Positions 16,757 through 28,850 of a stretch of 64,000 nucleotides of DNA are shown here, piece by piece. The position numbers were made by a program, and so were the translations under genes. Source of the DNA: an uncultured Holophagales bacterium. GTDB lineage: Bacteria; Acidobacteriota; Thermoanaerobaculia; Multivoradales; UBA5704. The stretch's first letter is position 1. Each line of letters begins with the position of its first letter. The stretch lies in the NCBI GenBank assembly GCA_963842525.1, contig CAWJGT010000001.1, forward strand, positions 320,001 through 384,000, read 5' to 3'. The notes under the pieces are model-generated. The model made no database searches. It was not told the DNA's origin and worked only from the letters and a program-made list of their open reading frames with translations.

Positions 16757-16864
16757 ATCGAGAACACCAGGCAACGGGTGTCTCTGGGTTGGTTCTTGCC
16801 GCCGGGTGCGCCGCACCCGTGGGAACAGCTTGACCGCACCGCTGAGGAGGACTGTAGACGACGC

Positions 16865-20460
<3,596 letters not shown>

Positions 20461-20464
<4 letters not shown>

Positions 20465-21168
20465 AGCCGGCCAAACCTCGGAACAAGCGTCCCCAGGCGA
20501 CCCCTGCGCTTGCCGCTCCGCCCGAGGAACAGACCTTCGCCGAGGTCGTGGAGATGATCCAGGCCGCCCGCGGGCAGGCTCTGGCGGCCGTCAACACCGC
20601 CCTCGTCGATCTCTATTGGCGGATCGGTGAATACATCTCGCGCAAACTGGCGACCGCAAGCTGGGGCGAAGGCGTGGTGACCGACCTGGCCAGCTACATC
20701 GAGCGGCGTTACCCGAACCTCAGGGGCTTCACCCGCCGGAACTTGTTCAGAATGCGGCAGTTCTTTGAGACTTACACGAAGGACGAAATAGTGTCGGCAC
20801 CGCTGACACTATTGCCCTGGACCCACCACCTCCTGATTCTGAGTCGCTGCAGGCGGCCTGAGGAACGGCAGTTCTACATCCGTCTGGCCGTCCAGGAGAA
20901 GTGGTCCAGCCGCGACCTCGAGCGTCAGCTCGCCGGCGCCCTGTTCGAGCGCGCGGTGCTGAATCCGCCCAAAGTCTCAACCGCGTTGAGACAATTACAC
21001 CCCGGCGGACACCGAATGACCCCGAAGAAGAAGCTCATCGAAGTCGCCCTCCCGCTCGACGCCATCAACAAGGCCGGCGCGCGGGAGAAGTCCCCTTCCC
21101 GTTGCGCCGGTACACCATCCGCGTCCCCGGCAGCGCTTGCCCGCAGGTCGGTTACGCATGCCCCTTGA
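20461..21168 (+). pseudogene. DUF1016/YhcG N-terminal domain only, running into a duplicated methylase start
   Basis: VNTALVDLYWRIG, GFTRRNLFRMRQF, LPWTHH, WSSRDLERQ; the PD-(D/E)XK C-terminal half is absent. Confidence 0.8.
21006..21093 (+). repeat. 88-bp duplicate of the DUF1156 gene 5' end (partner at 21450-21537)
   Basis: Identical except for one base; encodes [20 protein letters not shown]. Confidence 0.95.
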
Positions 21169-21428
21169 ACGGTCACGCCTTCCCGTGGAGATGTCGCGCA
21201 TGCCTGTTCGACAGGTAGAGGCTCCCGTTGAACGGTCACGCGCTCCCGTTGAGCGGTCATGCAGAACTTGCTCACGGTCACGCGTTCCTGTTGAACGGTC
21301 ACGCGCTCCCGTTGAACGGTCATGCAGTACTTGCTCACAGTCACGCGCTCCCGTTGAACCGGCACGCGCTCCCGTTGAACGGGCACGCGTTCCCGTTGAA
21401 CGGGCACGCAGAACTTGCTCACGGGCGC
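21160..21428. repeat. 21-bp tandem array C, about 13 units
   Basis: Consensus CCCGTTGAACGGTCACGCGCT, with a variant unit ACTTGCTCACGGTCACGCG recurring. Confidence 0.95.
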
Positions 21429-21459
21429 GCCTGTTCGCGCTCTTCGGAACGGACACCGA

Positions 21460-24400
21460 ATGACCCCGAAGAAGAAGCTCATCGAAGTCGCCCTCCCGCT
21501 CGACGCCATCAACAAGGCCAGCGCGCGGGAGAAGTCCATCCGCCACGGGCACCCGTCCACGCTCCACCTCTGGTGGGCGCGGCGGCCTCTTGCGGCGGCG
21601 CGGGCCGTGATCTTCTCCCAGATGGTGGACGATCCCTCGGCCTACGTGGATGTGCTCCGGGCGGACCCGAAGCTGCGCCGGAAGGCAGAGGCCGTGCTCA
21701 AGGCCCGTCTGAAGCTGTGGCAGGAGGCCCGGACTCTCGCCGAGAAGGCCAAAGAGGCCGGGCTCCCGGTGCCGGAACCAGGGCCGGCACCGACACTCGA
21801 CGACATGCTGGCCGACCAGGAGCGCCAGCGGCTGTTCCGCATCATCGAGGATCTGGTGCTGTGGGAGAACACCACCAACGAGAAGGTGCTGCAGGCGGCG
21901 CGCGACGAGATCTGGCAGAGCTGGCGGCGGACCTGCGCCGAGAACGCCGATCACCCCCGCGCCAAGGAGCTTTTCGATCGCCACAAGCTTCCCGCCTTCC
22001 ACGATCCCTTCGCCGGCGGCGGGTCGCTGCCGCTGGAGGCGCAGCGTCTGGGGCTGGAGAGCTACGCCAGCGATCTCAATCCCGTGGCGGTGCTGATCAA
22101 CAAGGCGATGATCGAAATCCCGCCCAAGTTCGCGGGCCGGCCGCCGGTGAATCCCGACTATCGCAAATCTCTTTTTTCGCTGGGAGCGCCGGCTTCCAGC
22201 CGGCCCCATCCGCCCGAGCACAAGGAATGGTTCAGCCGAGGCTACCTGCCGCACTTCGATGTTCCCGACCTTCTGCAATCCATCACCTTCCGGTTGGCCG
22301 ATTCTCTTCCCCAGGAGGCGTTGGACGAGATGGCCCGTGAGCTCGCGGCACACGCGGAAACCCAACGGCAGACGGAACGAGAGAGGCGCATCGCCACCTA
22401 CCTCGACGCCGGTCACGGCGCATGCTGGCTCAAGGATCCCCGCGTCGCAGCCCTGGTCGAGAACGCCCTCCTCCATTTCGACGGCCAGCGCTACCGGCTG
22501 CTCGCCTGGTGTGTGATGCCCAATCATGTCCATGCCCTCGTGGAGACGAAGGACGGATTCCCGCTTTCGGAGATCGTCCATTCCTGGAAATCCTTCACGG
22601 CCAACGAAGCGAACAAGATCCTCGACCGCAAGGGGGAGTTCTGGCAGCGCGAATATCACGACCGCTTCATCCGGGACGATGACCATTACCGGAATGCTGT
22701 GGTCTACATCGAAAGCAATCCGGTCAAGGCCGGGTTGGCGAAGTCCGCGGAAGCATGGAGATATTCCAGCGCCTGGAGCTACGAAGAAAAAAAGGCCGGC
22801 AAGGATGCCGGCGCTCCCAGCATGTGGCGCGGCGCGCAGGGACTAGCCGAGGACGTGCGCTACTACGGGCAGTGGATGCGCGACGAGGCGGAGAAGCGGA
22901 TCGGCCACCTCTACCCGAAAGTCGAAGTCACGGTCGAGATGGTGAAGGAGCGGCCCGACCTCGAAGTCCTACGTGGGCCAGAAGCTGACAGTGATCGCTT
23001 GGCTCTGGGCGCGCACGGTGAAGAGCCCGAACCCGGCCTTCGCGCAGGTGGACGTGCCGCTCGCTTCCACCTTCATGCTCGCCAATAAGGAGGGCAAGGA
23101 AGCGTACGTCGAGCCGGTGATCGAAGGAGACGGCTACCGCTTCACGGTGAAGATGGGCAAACCCAAGGACGCTGATGCAGTAGAGAGTGGCACCAAACTC
23201 TCGCGCGGAAGCTTCCGATGCCTATGTCTCGGGCGTACCGATCCCGTACGAATATATCAGATGACGAGGCCAAGGCCGACCGCATGGGCGCGCGGCTGAT
23301 GGCTGTTGTTGCCGAGGGTGGGCGCGGGCGAGTTTATCTTACACCGACTGAGACTATGGACATGGTGGCGCAAGCGGCAATGCCGACGTGGAAGCCAGAT
23401 GCTCCGAGCCGAGGGACATGGGCAAGCAATGCTCAAGGGCGCCGTTATGGGTTTCGAACATTTGGCGACTATTTCACCCCCCGGCAACTCGTGGCGCTAA
23501 CGACCTTCTCCGATCTGGTGCAGGAAGTGCGCGAGCGCGTGAAGTGTGATGCCCTCGCCGCAGACCTGCCGGATGACGGCAAGCCTCTCGCCTCCGCCGG
23601 CATCGGCGCTGCGGCCTATGCGGATGCCGTAGGAGTTTATCTTGGGCTTTCTGCAAGCAAGGCGGCCGACAATAATTCGACGATTTGTTCATGGATGCCC
23701 GGCATCAAATACGAAGTCGTAAGGAATACCTTCTCACGACAGGCCATCCCAATGACCTGGGACTTCGCTGAGTCGAATCCCTTTGCTGAGTCATCTGGAG
23801 ATTTCTATCAGCAGGTAAAGCGCGCTCTAACTGTGTTCGAGATTTCCTTCGTCACAGCCGGTGCCAATGGCAGTAGTGCCCAGGCAGATGCGCAGTCTGG
23901 CATCGGCTCTGTTCCCCGGGTTGTTTCTACCGATCCACCCTACTACGACAACATCGGCTACGCCGACCTCTCGGATTTCTTCTACGTCTGGCTGCGTCGC
24001 TCGCTGAAGTCGATCTTCCCCGACCTCTTCGCCACCCTCGCCGTGCCCAAGGCCGAGGAACTGGTTGCGACGCCCTACCGCCACGGCAGCAAAGAGAAGG
24101 CGGAGGCGTTCTTCCTCGACGGCATGACGCAGGCGATGCACCGTCTTGCCGAGCAGGCGCATCCGGCCTTCCCGGTAACCATCTACTAGCCTTCAAGCAG
24201 TCGGAGACTGGGACCGAAGGAGACGGCGGCACTGCCAGCACAGGCTGGGACACCTTCCTCGAGGCTGTGATCCGTGCCGGCTTCGCCATCAGCGGCACTT
24301 GGCCGATGCGCACGGAGCGTGGAGCCCGGTCGATTGGGGTTGGTACAAACGCCCTTGCCTCCAGCATCATCCTCGTCTGCCGCCCCCGAGCGGCCGACGC

Positions 24401-25132
24401 ACCCACCGCCACTCGCCGCGAGTTCGTCACCGCGCTTAAGGCCGAGCTGCCGAAGGCGCTCGCTCTCCTGCAGCGCGGCAACATCGCCCCGGTGGACCTC
24501 GCGCAGGCGGCCATCGGCCCAGGCATGGCGGTCTACACCCGCTACGCCCAGCGTGCTCGACGCCGAGGGCAAGCCGCTTCGCGGTGCGCGAGGCGCTGGC
24601 ACTGATCAACCAGACTCTCGACGAGGCACTGGCCGAGCAGGAGGGCGACTTCGATGCCGACAGCCGCTGGGCGCTGACTTGGTTCGAGCAGTCGGGCTTC
24701 GCCGAGGGCGAGTACGGCATGGCCGAACAGCTCTCCAAGTCCAAGAACACAAGCGTTGACGGCATGGGCGAAGCCGGCATCCTCGAAGCCAAGCGCGGCA
24801 AGGTGCGGCTGCTCCGGCCCGAGGAGCTTCCCGCAGACTGGGACCCGACCACCGACGCCCGCCTCACCGCCTGGGAGATGGTCCACCACCTGATCCGCGT
24901 GCTCGAAGCTGGCGGCGAGCGCGCGGCGTCCGTGCTCGCAGCCAAGCTCGGCACCAAGGCCGAGATCGCCCGCGAGCTCTGCTACCGCCTCTACACCCTC
25001 TGCGAGCGCAAGAAGCGGGCGGCTGAGGCGCTCTCGTACAACGGGCTCGTCCAGAGCTGGCCCGAGATCACCCGCCTCGCCCGGGAAGGGCAAGCTGTAC
25101 CCGACCGGCCGAAGCTCCCTGGAATGGAGTGA
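21460..25132 (+). CDS. DUF1156 adenine DNA methyltransferase with in-frame RAYT insert (apparent frameshifts downstream)
   Basis: [18 protein letters not shown] (SAM binding), [11 protein letters not shown] (DPPY catalytic). Confidence 0.9.
22179..22821 (+). mobile_element. REP-associated tyrosine transposase (RAYT, Y1 HUH) flanked by inverted REP hairpins
   Basis: [23 protein letters not shown] (HUH), [24 protein letters not shown]; 15-bp perfect terminal inverted repeat GCTGGGAGCGCCGGC (22179-22193 and 22807-22821). Confidence 0.9.
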
Positions 25133-25134
25133 CC

Positions 25135-25434
25135 ATGACTCACTTGGCGATCTCTGATGAGCAACTGGCGCAGTTCTGCCGGAAGCAGCACATCCGGCGC
25201 TTATCCCTGTTCGGCTCAACGCTCGCGGGTATTGCGAGGCCCGACAGCGACATCGATCTGCTGGTGGAGTTCGAGCCCGGCCGTGAGCCGGGCCTGCTCG
25301 GGCTTGCCACGATGGAGGCCGAGCTAGCCGCGATGCTAGGCGGGAAAAAGGTCGACCTGCGCACCCCGCAGGATCTCAGCCGGCACTTTCGCGACCAGGT
25401 GGTGCGGACGGCCGAGGTCCAATATGCAGCATGA
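25135..25434 (+). CDS. MNT nucleotidyltransferase antitoxin
   Basis: [16 protein letters not shown]; KVDLRT. Confidence 0.9.
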
Positions 25435-25510
25435 GGATCGAGTCCGCATCCTCCACATCACGGTAGAAGTTCTCCCTTTGTTGCGAGCATTGGCCGGTAC
25501 GATCACCTGA
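25424..25510 (+). pseudogene. Collapsed HepT/DUF86 HEPN toxin remnant
   Basis: 28-aa [31 protein letters not shown] overlapping the MNT stop; resembles a DUF86 start joined to its end. Confidence 0.55.
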
Positions 25511-25521
25511 GAGGCTTCAAA

Positions 25522-28500
25522 ATGGCAACAACCAACCACGACCGCGTCAGCAAGGCTCTCGGGCTGCTCAATGCAGGCCTGCGCCCCTTCGTCGAGCGCG
25601 AGCTCAAGTCAGTGTTCGGCGAAAACTGGGGCGCCGAGGTGAAGGAAACCTTGAGCGATACGCGCCTCGGTGGCGGTAAGGGTGATGCGCTGCAGGATGT
25701 CGCGGTGCAGTTGGTCATCATGGATCGACATTGGGGCGCTGTCTTCCGCAAGACTCTGGGAAAGGCAGAGCGTAGTCTGGTGAACGAGCTTCTGGAGGTT
25801 CGGCATCGTTGGGCGCACCAGAACCTCTTCTCGAGCGACGATGCCGACCGCGCGCTCGACTCCATAGCCCGGCTCTTGACCGCGATCTCGGCGCCCGAGG
25901 CCGACGAGGTCGGCAAGATGAAGATGGAGCTGCGGCGGCTGATGTTCGACGAGCAGGTGCGCAGCGAGAAGCGCAAGAGCGCCGGCACGGCCATCGAGAG
26001 CGCGGCGGCGGGCACCCTCAAGCCCTGGCGCGAGGTCGTCACGCCGCACAAGGACGTGGCGAGCGGACGCTACCAGCAGGCCGAGTTCGCCGCCGATCTC
26101 TGGCAGGTGCATCTGGGCGAAGGGACGGACGAGTACAGGAACCCGGTCGAGTTCTTCCGCCGCACCTACCTCACCGAAAGCCTGAAAGCGATGCTGGTCG
26201 GCGCCGTGCGGCGCCTCTCCGGCCAGGGCGGCGACCCGGTGGTGCAGCTCCAGACCAACTTCGGCGGTGGCAAGACGCACTCGATGCTGGCGCTCTACCA
26301 CCTGTTCTCCGGCGTCGACCCCGAGCGAGCTGGCGGGCATCGACGCGGTGCTGGCAGGAGGCGGGCGTCAAGAGCCTGCCCAGCGGCGCAGCGCGTCGTC
26401 CTGGTGGGCAACAAGATCTCGCCCGGCAATCCGGTCACCAAGCCGGACGGCACCGTCGTCCGCACGCTGTGGGGCGAGCTGGCGTGGCAGCTCGGCGGCA
26501 AGAAGGCCTTCGCCCGCATCCAGGCCGACGACGAGAAGGCCACCAGCCCCGGCGACGTGCTGCGCGAGCTGTTCGTCGAGTACGGACCGTGCCTGATCCT
26601 GATCGACGAATGGGTGGCCTACGCGCGCCAGCTCCACGACCAGAGCGATCTGCCGGCTGGCGGCTTCGAGACCCAGTTCACTTTCGCCCAGGTGCTGACC
26701 GAATCGGCCAAGCTGGCGAGCAACTGCCTGCTCGTCATCAGCCTGCCCGCCTCGGACACCTCCGGCTCACCGCACACGCAGGCGGACAATGTGGAGGTCG
26801 GCGGCCAGCGGGGGCGGGAGGCGCTCGACCGGCTGCGCAACGTGGTGGGGCGCGTCGAGTCCTCCTGGCGGCCGGCGAGCGCCGAGGAGGGCTTCGAGAT
26901 CGTGCGCCGGCGGCTGTTCGAGCCGATCTCGGACCCGGCGCAATATCAAGGACCGCGATGTCGTGGCGCGGGCCTTCGCCGACTTCTATCGCACGCAGGA
27001 AGCGGAGTTTCCGCCCGAGTGCCGCACGGCCGACTACGAGAAGCGCATCAAGGCCGCCTATCCCATCCACCCGGAGATCTTCGACCGGCTCTACACCGAC
27101 TGGTCGACCCTGGTGAAGTTCCAGCGCACGCGCGGCGTGTTGCGACTGATGGCGGCGGTCATCCACAGCCTCTGGGAGAAGGGGGACAGGAACCCGCTGA
27201 TCCTGCCGGCGAACATCTCGATCGACGACAACCGCGTCCAGTTCGAGCTGACGCGCTACCTCTCGGACAACTGGGTGCCGGTGATCGAGAAGGACGTCGA
27301 CGGCCCCAGCTCGCTGCCCCTGCGGATGGACAGCGACGTGCCGAACCTCGGCAAATTCTCCGCCTGCCGGCGTGTGGCACGCACCATCTACCTGGGCTCG
27401 GCGCCGCTGACCCAGGCCGCGCACCGCGGCCTCGAAGACCGGCGGGTGAAGCTCGGCTGCGTGATGCCCGGCGAATCGCCCGCAGATCTTCGGCGATGCC
27501 CTGCGGCGGCTCGCCGGAGCGGCGACCTATCTCTATCAGGATGGCGCGCGCTATTGGTATTCCACCCAGCCCACCGTGACCAAGCTGGCGGAAGACCGCG
27601 CCGAGCAATTGAAGCGCGAGCCGGACAAGGTCGTGCACGAGATCGACAAGCGCCTGCGGGCCGACCTCGCGAAAAAGGATGATCTTCAACCGCATCCACC
27701 CGCTGCCGCCCACCGGGTATGACGTGCCGGACGACCTCGAGGCGAGGCTCGTGGTGATCGGAGTGGATCATTCCTACAGCAAGGAGCCGGGCAACGCGGC
27801 CGAGACCTTCGCGAAGGCCATTCTGGAGATGCGCGGCAACGCGCCCCGCCTCTATCGCAACGCCCTCGTCTTCCTCGCCGCGGACAAGACCCGTCTGCAG
27901 GACCTGGACGAGGCGGCTCGCAAGTATCTCGCGTGGGAATCGATTCTGGCCGAGAAGGCTGGTCACTGAACCTCGATCCACAGCAGGTCAAGCAGGCCGA
28001 GACGCAGAAAATCGCCGCCGACAGCGTCGTCACCGCCCGCATCCCGGAAACCTATCAATGGTTGCTGGTGCCCGGGCAGGAGAAGCCGGACCACGCGATC
28101 GAGTGGCAGGCCCACAAGCTCACCGGCCAGGATGTGTTGTCGGCGCGCGTGAGCAAGAAGCTGCGGAACGATGAGCGCCTGCTGACCGTTTTCGCCGGCA
28201 CGAGACTCCGTATGGAGCTCGACCGGGTCCCTCTCTGGCGCGGCGACCACGTGGAGGTCAAGCAGCTCGCCGAAGACTTTGCGCGCTATCTCTACCTGCC
28301 GCGGCTCAAGGATACGTCAGTCTTGATCGGTGCCATTCGCGATGGGATGACGCTCCTGACCTGGCAGCAGGAGAGCTTCGCCTTCGCCGACAGCTTCGAC
28401 GAGAGCGCCGGCCGCTACCGGGGCCTGCGCGGAGGGCAGGGCATTTCTCTCTCCGGCACCGACACGGCAGGCGTCCTGGTGAAGGGGGACGTCGCCCGCG

Positions 28501-28850
28501 CACAGCTCGATGCCGAGAGCACTCCGGCGCCCGGCGGCGCCGGATCGACCCCGGCCGGGCCGGCGCAGTCCGGAGAGAGCGTCTCGCCCGAAAGCTCGAA
28601 GCCCGTGGCGGTCCAGCCCAAGCGCTTCCACGGCACAGTCACCCTCGATCCCGCCCGCGTCGGGCGCGACGCCGGCCGCGTGGCCGAAGAGGTGATCGTC
28701 CACCTGGCCGGTCTCCTCGGAGCGAGAGTGACTGTCACACTCGAAATCGAAGCCGAGATCCCCGCGGGCACTCCGGATCATGTCGTACGGACGGTCACGG
28801 AGAACAGCCGGACGCTGAAGTTTACGAGCCAGGGGTTTGAGAAGGAGTAA
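25522..28850 (+). CDS. Swt1-like HEPN plus DUF499 AAA+ ATPase (apparent frameshifts)
   Basis: RHRWAH (Rx4H), EFAADL, LQTNFGGGKTHS (Walker A), ILIDE (Walker B), YPIHPE, FQRTRGVLRLMA. Confidence 0.9.

Follow-up and report, generated by a model that had tools for sequence, protein, structure and literature searches.

The 64,000 nucleotides that we analyzed (the window) come from an uncultured Holophagales bacterium (contig CAWJGT010000001.1, positions 320,001 to 384,000) and contain an Hma (helicase-methylase-ATPase) defense locus: PADLOC identified HmaA, HmaB, and HmaC in their usual order. Judged from its sequence, a variable surface loop of HmaB, which is a DUF1156 N6-adenine methylase, is occupied by a REP-RAYT-REP unit, or "REPtron." This is a REP-associated tyrosine transposase (RAYT) bounded by two repetitive extragenic palindromes (REPs) in inverted orientation. 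An earlier note on this DNA had described the transposase as lodged in frame within the methylase and had proposed several checks, among them an alignment with insert-free homologs, a structure prediction, a look for precise excision in reads, and a genome search for Y1_Tnp domains inside methylases. The parts of hmaB around the insert are:

21460 to 22157, + strand: N-terminal part of hmaB (DUF1156, the DPFAGGG motif, up to loop site A); from Pfam, and PADLOC HmaB with E = 1.2e-127

22158 to 22178, + strand: left junction filler, which encodes YRKSLFS and replaces the native loop; from comparing its nucleotides to the empty sites in L014 and L015

22179 to 22205, + strand: left REP hairpin, with head GCTGGGAGCGC, stem GCCGGC, and loop TTCCA; translated as LGAPASSRP

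22222 to 22779, + strand: core of the RAYT (Y1/HUH), with MPNHVH as the HUH motif and the tyrosine in YIESNP, lacking a start and stop of its own; from Pfam and the predicted fold

22794 to 22821, + strand: right REP hairpin, inverted, with loop AAGGAT; translated as AGKDAGAPS

The + strand frame is open from 21460 to 23088 (ORF 21415/21460..23088, for open reading frame) and runs through the 215-codon insert. The ORF contains, in order, DUF1156, the S-adenosylmethionine-binding motif DPFAGGG of the D12 type, Y1_Tnp, and the beginning of a conserved HmaB segment. Pfam found DUF1156 at amino acids 11–76 (E = 3.5e-27), the D12 methylase motif at 169–219, and Y1_Tnp (PF01797) at 344–419, with 39.2 bits against a cutoff of 23. 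A repeat search found the inverted arms at 22179–22197 and 22803–22821 (19 nucleotides, 95% complementary). From the sequence, the two arms are each part of a full hairpin (22179–22205 and 22794–22821).

Between the left hairpin and the core of the RAYT, none of the codons ATG, GTG, and TTG occurs in frame, and no stop codon follows the core. With neither a start nor a stop codon of its own, the insert can only be translated as a segment of HmaB. Pfam found no intein or Hint domain in the ORF (at E of 0.01 or better), and the junction residues, S/L (..FS/LG..) and S/M (..PS/MW..), are unlike those of intein splice junctions. On all of these points the earlier note was accurate: the frame is uninterrupted across the insert, the hairpins, their translations as linkers, and the MPNHVH and YIESNP motifs are as it described them, and neither a separate start or stop nor an intein splice motif was found. 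It had also placed the insert between DPFAGGG and DPPY of a single frame. The order holds, with DPFAGGG upstream and DPPYY downstream, but the true hmaB frame is lost about 140 nucleotides beyond the insert, so DPPY lies outside the uninterrupted ORF.

The only sequence match of the RAYT in the Protein Data Bank (PDB) is 4er8_A, which is TnpA-REP from E. coli (phmmer, E = 1.8e-6). The structure prediction agrees: in an AlphaFold2 model, the RAYT core (approximately residues 265–445) has pLDDT values of 83–96, and the best Foldseek match of the model is again 4er8_A (E = 6.3e-7, with a TM score of 0.68 on the target). The hairpin-encoded segments have pLDDT below 50. These linkers are predicted to be disordered, with the RAYT folding as a separate domain.

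Two proteins that lack the insert, P0002 and P0003, are 97–99% identical over the N-terminal 231 residues. The flanks also adjoin without the insert in a genome of the same genus (G003) and in one of the same family (G018). Aligning the ORF to these four insert-free references defines the empty site and places the insert at amino acids 239–453, which is 215 codons (22158–22824 of the window). The native 33-nucleotide loop, which encodes ESRGKLDHSKS, has been exchanged for 21 nucleotides, the element, and an ATG. The left filler seems to be part of the element, because KSLFS recurs in P0240, whose start is MSSKSLFSLGGPASS. P0240 is the nearest relative of this RAYT (87% identical) and lies outside HmaB.

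The junctions are also present in other assemblies. Logan contigs from sequencing run X1 are 100% identical and cover 22055–22242, including the left junction, as well as 22225–22770. A 6,296-nucleotide contig from run X2, which belongs to another study, is about 94% identical and is colinear with 21449–23116 across both junctions. Because the source sample may be X1 itself, X2 alone is independent support for the junctions. Insert-free alleles in runs X2, X3, and X5 connect 22155/7 to 22824; the contigs that skip the insert are at most about 90% identical and come from other organisms.

To see how RAYTs are placed regardless of host frame, we scanned species genomes with RAYT peptide patterns, ignoring the frame of any host gene, and considered the best 80 of 561 confirmed loci. 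Ten of the 80 RAYTs lie in hmaB, and in eight of these ten the frame stays open across both junctions, for at least 229 codons upstream and at least 527 downstream. Seven of the eight have an open HmaA or HmaC in their flanks. Of the other two hmaB cases, L029 is open on the left only, and the upstream part of L101 is in another frame. (We considered P0234 as the product of L101 and rejected it, as it is only 62–66% identical.) Seven further RAYTs lie in long open frames, four of which contain DNA-methylase or restriction-modification domains:

L070: RAYT in a frame with Eco57I/N6_Mtase

L074: RAYT in a frame with HsdM

L094: RAYT in a frame with N6_N4_Mtase

L039: RAYT in a frame with the MmeI N-terminal and helicase-spacer domains; the frame stops 107 codons past the RAYT and has no detected methylase domain

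L024 and L065: these look like read-through fusions

L089: Y1_Tnp only

Among the sampled loci, the excess of in-frame cases and the bias in host genes are plain. The sampled cases share ancestry, and we attach no probability to the in-frame excess.

We also compared the RAYT part of protein P0072 to proteins of 707–2253 amino acids. Among 1187 candidates, 743 proteins in this size range carry a related RAYT, and we examined the best 120 of these. In all, 104 of the 120 align to HmaB (P0179 only weakly). The remaining 16 comprise seven proteins with PF01555, two MetH-like proteins, two IspG, two MttB, one protein related to alanyl-tRNA synthetase (AlaRS), one creatininase, and one protein with PF13020, which we take to be HmaA. 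So, this lineage of RAYTs nests in frame repeatedly: mostly in HmaB, at two loops, and then in other DNA methylases, in HmaA, and in a few metabolic enzymes.

The two loops in HmaB are site A, which is the one occupied in the window (residues ~235–242 of P0003), and site B (residues ~486–490). The RAYT junctions are stereotyped at both loops (LGARASRP...AGGTPALPG). Both sites are occupied in P0121–P0123 and P0125, and open frames with two RAYT domains each are found in IspG, MetH-like, and AlaRS-related proteins from metagenomes (P0181, P0187, P0202, P0225, and P0173). REPs without a RAYT are also found in frame, at the same loops and at other loops of HmaB (P0072, P0242, and P0261). The insert is absent from 118 of the best 120 N-terminal matches to HmaB.

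As a separate observation, the 94%-identical relative in run X2 has an additional REP copy after window position 23116 (VEPVI/..GYRF). In P0072, a REP doublet lies in frame at this position, which makes it a third recurrent lodging site in HmaB.

The catalytic residues of the embedded RAYTs are conserved. The His-u-His motif and the tyrosine are retained in 73 of 73 domains at site A, 40 of 41 at site B, and 43 of 43 embedded elsewhere (156/157 overall). In the window's RAYT, HVH and the tyrosine of YIESNP align to invariant or nearly invariant columns across 270 RAYT domains. As for the flanking repeats, eight of 14 embedded loci have inverted arms of 17–46 nucleotides with a GGGAGCGC-type head and with stems that vary in a compensatory way. 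At another three, the best arm is the stem alone, with the head displaced or degenerate, and at the last three (L096, L101, and L039) the flanking repeats are weak or atypical.

We built a FastTree phylogeny of the 270 RAYT domains and counted the changes of the HmaB-A and HmaB-B context labels. Free-standing and embedded copies are intermingled in the tree. ("Free" means a short enough protein and no homology to HmaB, and some of these may be fragments.) The HmaB-A label changes 12 times, with at least five changes forced by well-supported branches, and the HmaB-B label changes 11 times, with at least four so forced. The window's RAYT groups with P0240 and P0241, which both lack an HmaB context (support 95), and its clade of 23 rows brings together free-standing, site A, site B, and HmaA copies. 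This mixture of contexts favors an element that is still changing its lodgings. We had also taken the higher identity of some RAYTs (98–99%) than of their HmaB backbones (76–80%) as a sign of mobility, and we dropped this after a sliding comparison.

The general view of RAYTs is that they are free-standing, single-copy genes that are inherited vertically. The window's RAYT belongs to this protein family but is organized differently, being neither free-standing nor single-copy: the genome has two further paralogs, on contigs C22 and C9. The paralog on C22 is free-standing, with its own ATG and stop codon, and has a REP of another subfamily upstream. The one on C9 (G000:C9:1310295-1310927, - strand) is 56% identical and has one TAG inside the match, and it lies within a 531-codon open frame.

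The genome also contains a matching family of REPs. We found 55 exact copies of the head plus hairpin, as compared to 0 in a reversed-genome control. About 20 of these belong to the insert's own subfamily (with loops ATCCTT, ATCCCT, or TTCCA), and several form inverted doublets. REPs of the same family lie in frame in the AMP-binding (adenylation) domains of two nonribosomal peptide synthetases (L103, G000:C19:480580-483960; L104, G000:C3:610778-615826). One is an 87-nucleotide inverted doublet and the other is a singlet, and both are just upstream of LAYVxYTSGSTG. We had considered the open frames across the genome's 79 REP elements as further evidence and dropped them: open frames are long by chance in a genome with 67% GC, so the table of such frames is uninformative, and only the two cases in peptide synthetases were confirmed by Pfam. 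Of the other carrier genomes that we tested, G043 has 82 REP copies (and 0 in the control), and three of the four have just 1–2 copies.

The rest of the hma locus in the window, with its neighbors, is:

16862 to 20452, + strand: hmaA (SNF2 helicase with a C-terminal nuclease-like domain), with at least seven frame changes; PADLOC HmaA with E = 4.2e-90 for 19271–20464, and tblastn

20542 to 20953, + strand: fragment of a DUF1016_N ORF between hmaA and hmaB; PF17761 with E = 1.5e-42, at amino acids 141–277 of ORF 20122..21168

21006 to 21537, + strand: duplicated start region of hmaB around a 21-nucleotide tandem array; from a repeat search and Tandem Repeats Finder

22825 to 25132, + strand: remainder of hmaB with DPPYY, divided into five frame segments; from tblastn with P0003 and P0002

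25129 to 25434, + strand: small ORF of 101 amino acids between hmaB and hmaC; from the ORF list

25522 to 28850, + strand: hmaC (DUF499 AAA+ ATPase), with at least three frame changes; PADLOC HmaC with E = 2.8e-108 and 9.6e-60, and tblastn with L062 and L083

The earlier note had assumed an intact fusion protein, and this part of its account fails: hmaB is frameshifted past the insert, within an hma locus that is broken throughout. Beyond the insert, hmaB changes frame four times (near 22962, 23225, 24188, and 24552–24580). By tblastn with P0003, its five segments lie in frame 1 (up to about 22962), frame 2 (up to about 23225), frame 1 again (up to 24186), frame 3 (up to 24551), and frame 2 again (up to 25087). 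The pieces of hmaA, as found by tblastn with the HmaA parts of L027 and L030, lie in alternating frames, and several of them are 82–96% identical to L027. A frame plot of third-position GC content agrees that hmaA is split. Altogether, the hma genes (16862–28850) have about 15 frame changes within 12 kb, and their pieces are still 82–97% identical to intact homologs.

These frame changes are either real decay or consensus errors in a variable island. The high residual identity suggests consensus errors in an island with low coverage or strain variation, rather than ordinary decay. As a comparison from the same genome, rpoC is a single open frame of 1,397 amino acids, and the first 69 positions of the rpoB profile are in a separate short frame. 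Because the N terminus of rpoB is also split, consensus errors may underlie some of the hma shifts. In related contigs of runs X2, X3, and X5, single bases are absent at 22962/3, 24552, and 24579/80. No run contains half or more of the sequence words of the stretch, no RNA run was among the matches listed, and the 100%-identical contigs from X1 reach none of the frameshift sites. Either way, with the locus frameshifted, the window gives no evidence on the methylase activity of a fused HmaB. At most, a 542-amino-acid product, with the N terminus of HmaB and the RAYT, could still be made from it.

The start of hmaB is also irregular. A stretch of 88 nucleotides, including 12 nucleotides before the ATG, occurs twice (21006–21093 and 21450–21537); the two copies are 99% identical and 444 nucleotides apart. 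Between them is a tandem array (21221–21409) with nine copies of a 21-nucleotide unit, a super-period of 63 nucleotides, and HALPLNG-like heptads. No other sequencing run covers 21141–21422, and the repeated start may be genuine or an artifact of assembly.

Some further features of the locus are less directly related to the insert. The 101-amino-acid ORF between hmaB and hmaC may be a nucleotidyltransferase antitoxin, judging by eye. HmaC has about 165 additional N-terminal residues before the profile match (25522–25990). HEPN-fused variants of DUF499 are reported in a recent preprint (bioRxiv 10.1101/2025.10.09.681413). Several related genomes have two hmaB paralogs within a few kb of each other (G018:C5, G031:C1, and G019:C47). 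The paralogs and alleles of hmaB differ chiefly in the middle part, which is involved in target recognition, so domains that determine specificity may be swapped.

Given the observed anatomy, recurrence, in-frame excess, conserved catalytic residues, and matching REP family, our preferred explanation is that a selfish REP-RAYT unit persists as a non-splicing lodger, in frame, and rides along with mobile defense genes. We give this a probability of about 60%. The GC-rich REPs carry a stop codon in no frame. The hairpins would be read through as flexible linkers, with the RAYT folding as a separate domain. If its length is divisible by three and it lies in a permissive loop, the insert would leave its host protein still usable. 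A hard-to-lose host gene would shield the insert against imprecise deletion, and defense genes that move horizontally would bring it into new genomes. The fusion protein is presumably made, with an active RAYT that would serve the ~20 matching REPs of the genome, and the lodging would be selfish rather than useful. The evidence from the family is in good agreement with the earlier note's idea of an in-frame REP-RAYT lodger in tolerant loops: two loops of HmaB and other DNA methylases are used, eight of ten hmaB cases are in frame, inverted REPs flank most of the embedded copies examined, and the tree is mixed. The copy in the window, where hma is broken, does not by itself show that a fused methylase works.

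Several observations weigh against a selfish lodger. First, a simple model of permissive loops does not predict the strong bias towards Hma proteins and DNA methylases, which a functional fusion fits equally well. Second, in the three of four carriers with just 1–2 REPs, the RAYT has no population of REPs to serve. Third, the insertion is not clean, as about 18 nucleotides of the native loop were replaced. Fourth, hmaB in the window shifts frame four times beyond the insert, and its partner genes hmaA and hmaC are likewise broken, so the in-frame state here may merely have outlasted a dead gene; and two of the ten hmaB cases (L029 and L101) are not open on one side. Finally, the evidence for repeated movement can be read in other ways. 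The common junction stereotype may reflect a few ancient insertions that spread with hmaB instead of many events, the changes of label in the tree can equally be escapes and not just entries, and the discordance between RAYT and backbone reflects the mosaic middle of HmaB rather than movement of the RAYT.

The most serious alternative, which the earlier note had also offered, is that the RAYT has been co-opted as a domesticated nuclease or other module. It would then be a working part of these methylases, such as a nuclease that acts on single-stranded DNA or hairpins, a DNA-binding module, or a nuclease that is delivered by the methylase, and would be kept by selection on the host. The hosts are mostly defense genes: the best 120 long carriers include the 104 HmaB, the seven with PF01555, and the one HmaA-like protein, and of the 14 sampled RAYTs that are surrounded by long open frames, 12 lie in ORFs with DNA-methylase or restriction-modification domains. 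Co-option also fits the retention of catalytic residues in 156 of 157 embedded copies, the fusions in operons with open HmaA or HmaC, and the carrier genomes with hardly any dispersed REPs, where mobilizing REPs could have no role. Conserved catalytic residues and the bias towards defense genes do not discriminate, because both the selfish and the domesticated explanations predict them. On the other hand, the insert is missing from nearly all of the best N-terminal HmaB matches (118/120) and from a genome of the same genus. A mere protein domain has no need of the inverted REP hairpins that surround, at the DNA level, most of the embedded copies that we examined. The same lineage of RAYTs is also found inside IspG, MetH-like, and AlaRS-related proteins, REPs without a RAYT lie in frame in the same loops (P0072 and P0261), and the linkers are predicted to be disordered. 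Overall, we view co-option as rather unlikely, at roughly a third of the weight that we give to a selfish lodger.

Another explanation is a local accident: a dying cluster of hma pseudogenes, in which a REP-RAYT landed in frame by chance (one in three), with no bearing on function. The state of the locus fits this, with four frame changes in hmaB, at least seven in hmaA, at least three in hmaC, and a duplicated 5' end, while rpoC is intact. However, hundreds of intact proteins share the in-frame arrangement, as do eight of ten cases at the DNA level. In the 94%-identical contig from another study, the insert is retained but the extra base at 22962/3 is missing. Also, identities of 82–97% between the broken pieces and intact homologs would be odd for natural decay, and the split N terminus of rpoB hints that some of the shifts may be consensus errors. 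We consider a local accident to be improbable.

It is still more doubtful that the insert is removed, whether by protein splicing as in inteins, by RNA splicing as in IStrons, or by frequent and precise excision of single-stranded DNA. Relatives in the IS200/IS605 family do excise precisely, and filled and empty alleles coexist among relatives of the window's hmaB. However, Pfam found no Hint or intein domain, and the junction residues are not of the intein type. We saw no intron-like structure, although we made no search for one. Because the filled site has replaced the native loop, simple excision would not regenerate the empty site, and the contigs that skip the insert, at no more than about 90% identity, are from other organisms. 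A chimeric assembly, in which the insert was joined to hmaB by mistake at a repeat, might be suspected given that REPs are repetitive and indel-type defects are numerous in the locus, but it is already contradicted by the Logan contigs that span the left junction (X1, 100% identity) or both junctions (X2, 6.3 kb) and by the hundreds of database proteins with this architecture.

If REP-RAYT units are indeed selfish lodgers, then nesting in defense methylases would shield the RAYT from loss and offer it a horizontal route. Selfish elements would thereby have a third way of living within genes, next to the intein and the self-splicing intron. More broadly, we speculate that this lineage of RAYTs behaves as "non-splicing inteins" of hard-to-lose proteins, chiefly the methylases, along with the helicase, of mobile anti-phage systems. 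Promoter, start codon, and horizontal transfer would come from the host, and the RAYT, acting within the fusion protein, would seed and maintain a family of REPs in each new genome. We hold this broader view tentatively, at somewhat less than even odds. If it is true, defense islands would be vectors for the spread of REPs and RAYTs, and the REP populations of many phyla would trace to RAYTs borne by methylases. Nesting would also account for the odd annotation of proteins as "methylase/transposase," and it marks two loops in HmaB as tolerating a domain of 200 residues. It further raises the possibility that some Hma systems have an extra HUH nuclease.

In the openly accessible literature that we searched, we found no report of a RAYT nested in a methylase or in a DUF1156 protein. 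The words "fused," "fusion," and "in-frame" are absent from the main text of one RAYT paper (Bertels 2017, PMC5581495). The Hma system (HmaA/B/C) appears in the text of PMC11232893, and the 2025 preprint (bioRxiv 10.1101/2025.10.09.681413) refers to it as a "Type-1 BREX-related" system; the main text of the preprint does not mention transposase, HUH, RAYT, IS200, mobile, or intein. The in-frame nesting of RAYTs in methylases is a widespread habit that has apparently not been described. In-frame lodging of small palindromic repeats is already known, as Rickettsia palindromic elements and other small repeats are fused in frame into protein-coding genes (Ogata 2000, as cited in the text of PMC3184786).

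How does the window's element compare to these and other known systems? RAYTs, or TnpA-REP, with flanking REPs were reportedly described by Nunvar in 2010 (PMC2817692). Like the REPtron of E. coli (TnpA-REP, PDB 4ER8), the element has a Y1_Tnp domain with HUH and tyrosine motifs, inverted flanking REPs, and REPs dispersed in the genome. In contrast, the RAYTs that have been described stand free and have start and stop codons of their own, and the window's RAYT is an internal domain with neither. The host locus matches the HmaA, HmaB, and HmaC models in the usual order, but all three genes are frameshifted.

This family of REPs resembles the Rickettsia palindromic elements in being selfish palindromes that survive within coding sequence by retaining the frame. 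Unlike those elements, the insert (~645 nucleotides) brings a transposase gene, which becomes an extra folded domain, and RAYT inserts recur at defined loops of one protein family.

IStrons, in which a group I intron is joined to an IS200/IS605 transposase and is removed at the RNA level, resemble the window's element in belonging to the Y1 family and in limiting the harm to the interrupted gene, but nothing here suggests splicing. Inteins with homing endonucleases are likewise selfish inserts that lie in frame, recur at the same sites, occupy proteins that are hard to lose, and are sporadic among close homologs. Unlike inteins, the window's insert has no Hint domain or splice-junction residues and presumably stays in the mature protein, and its nuclease is an HUH enzyme, predicted to act on single strands.

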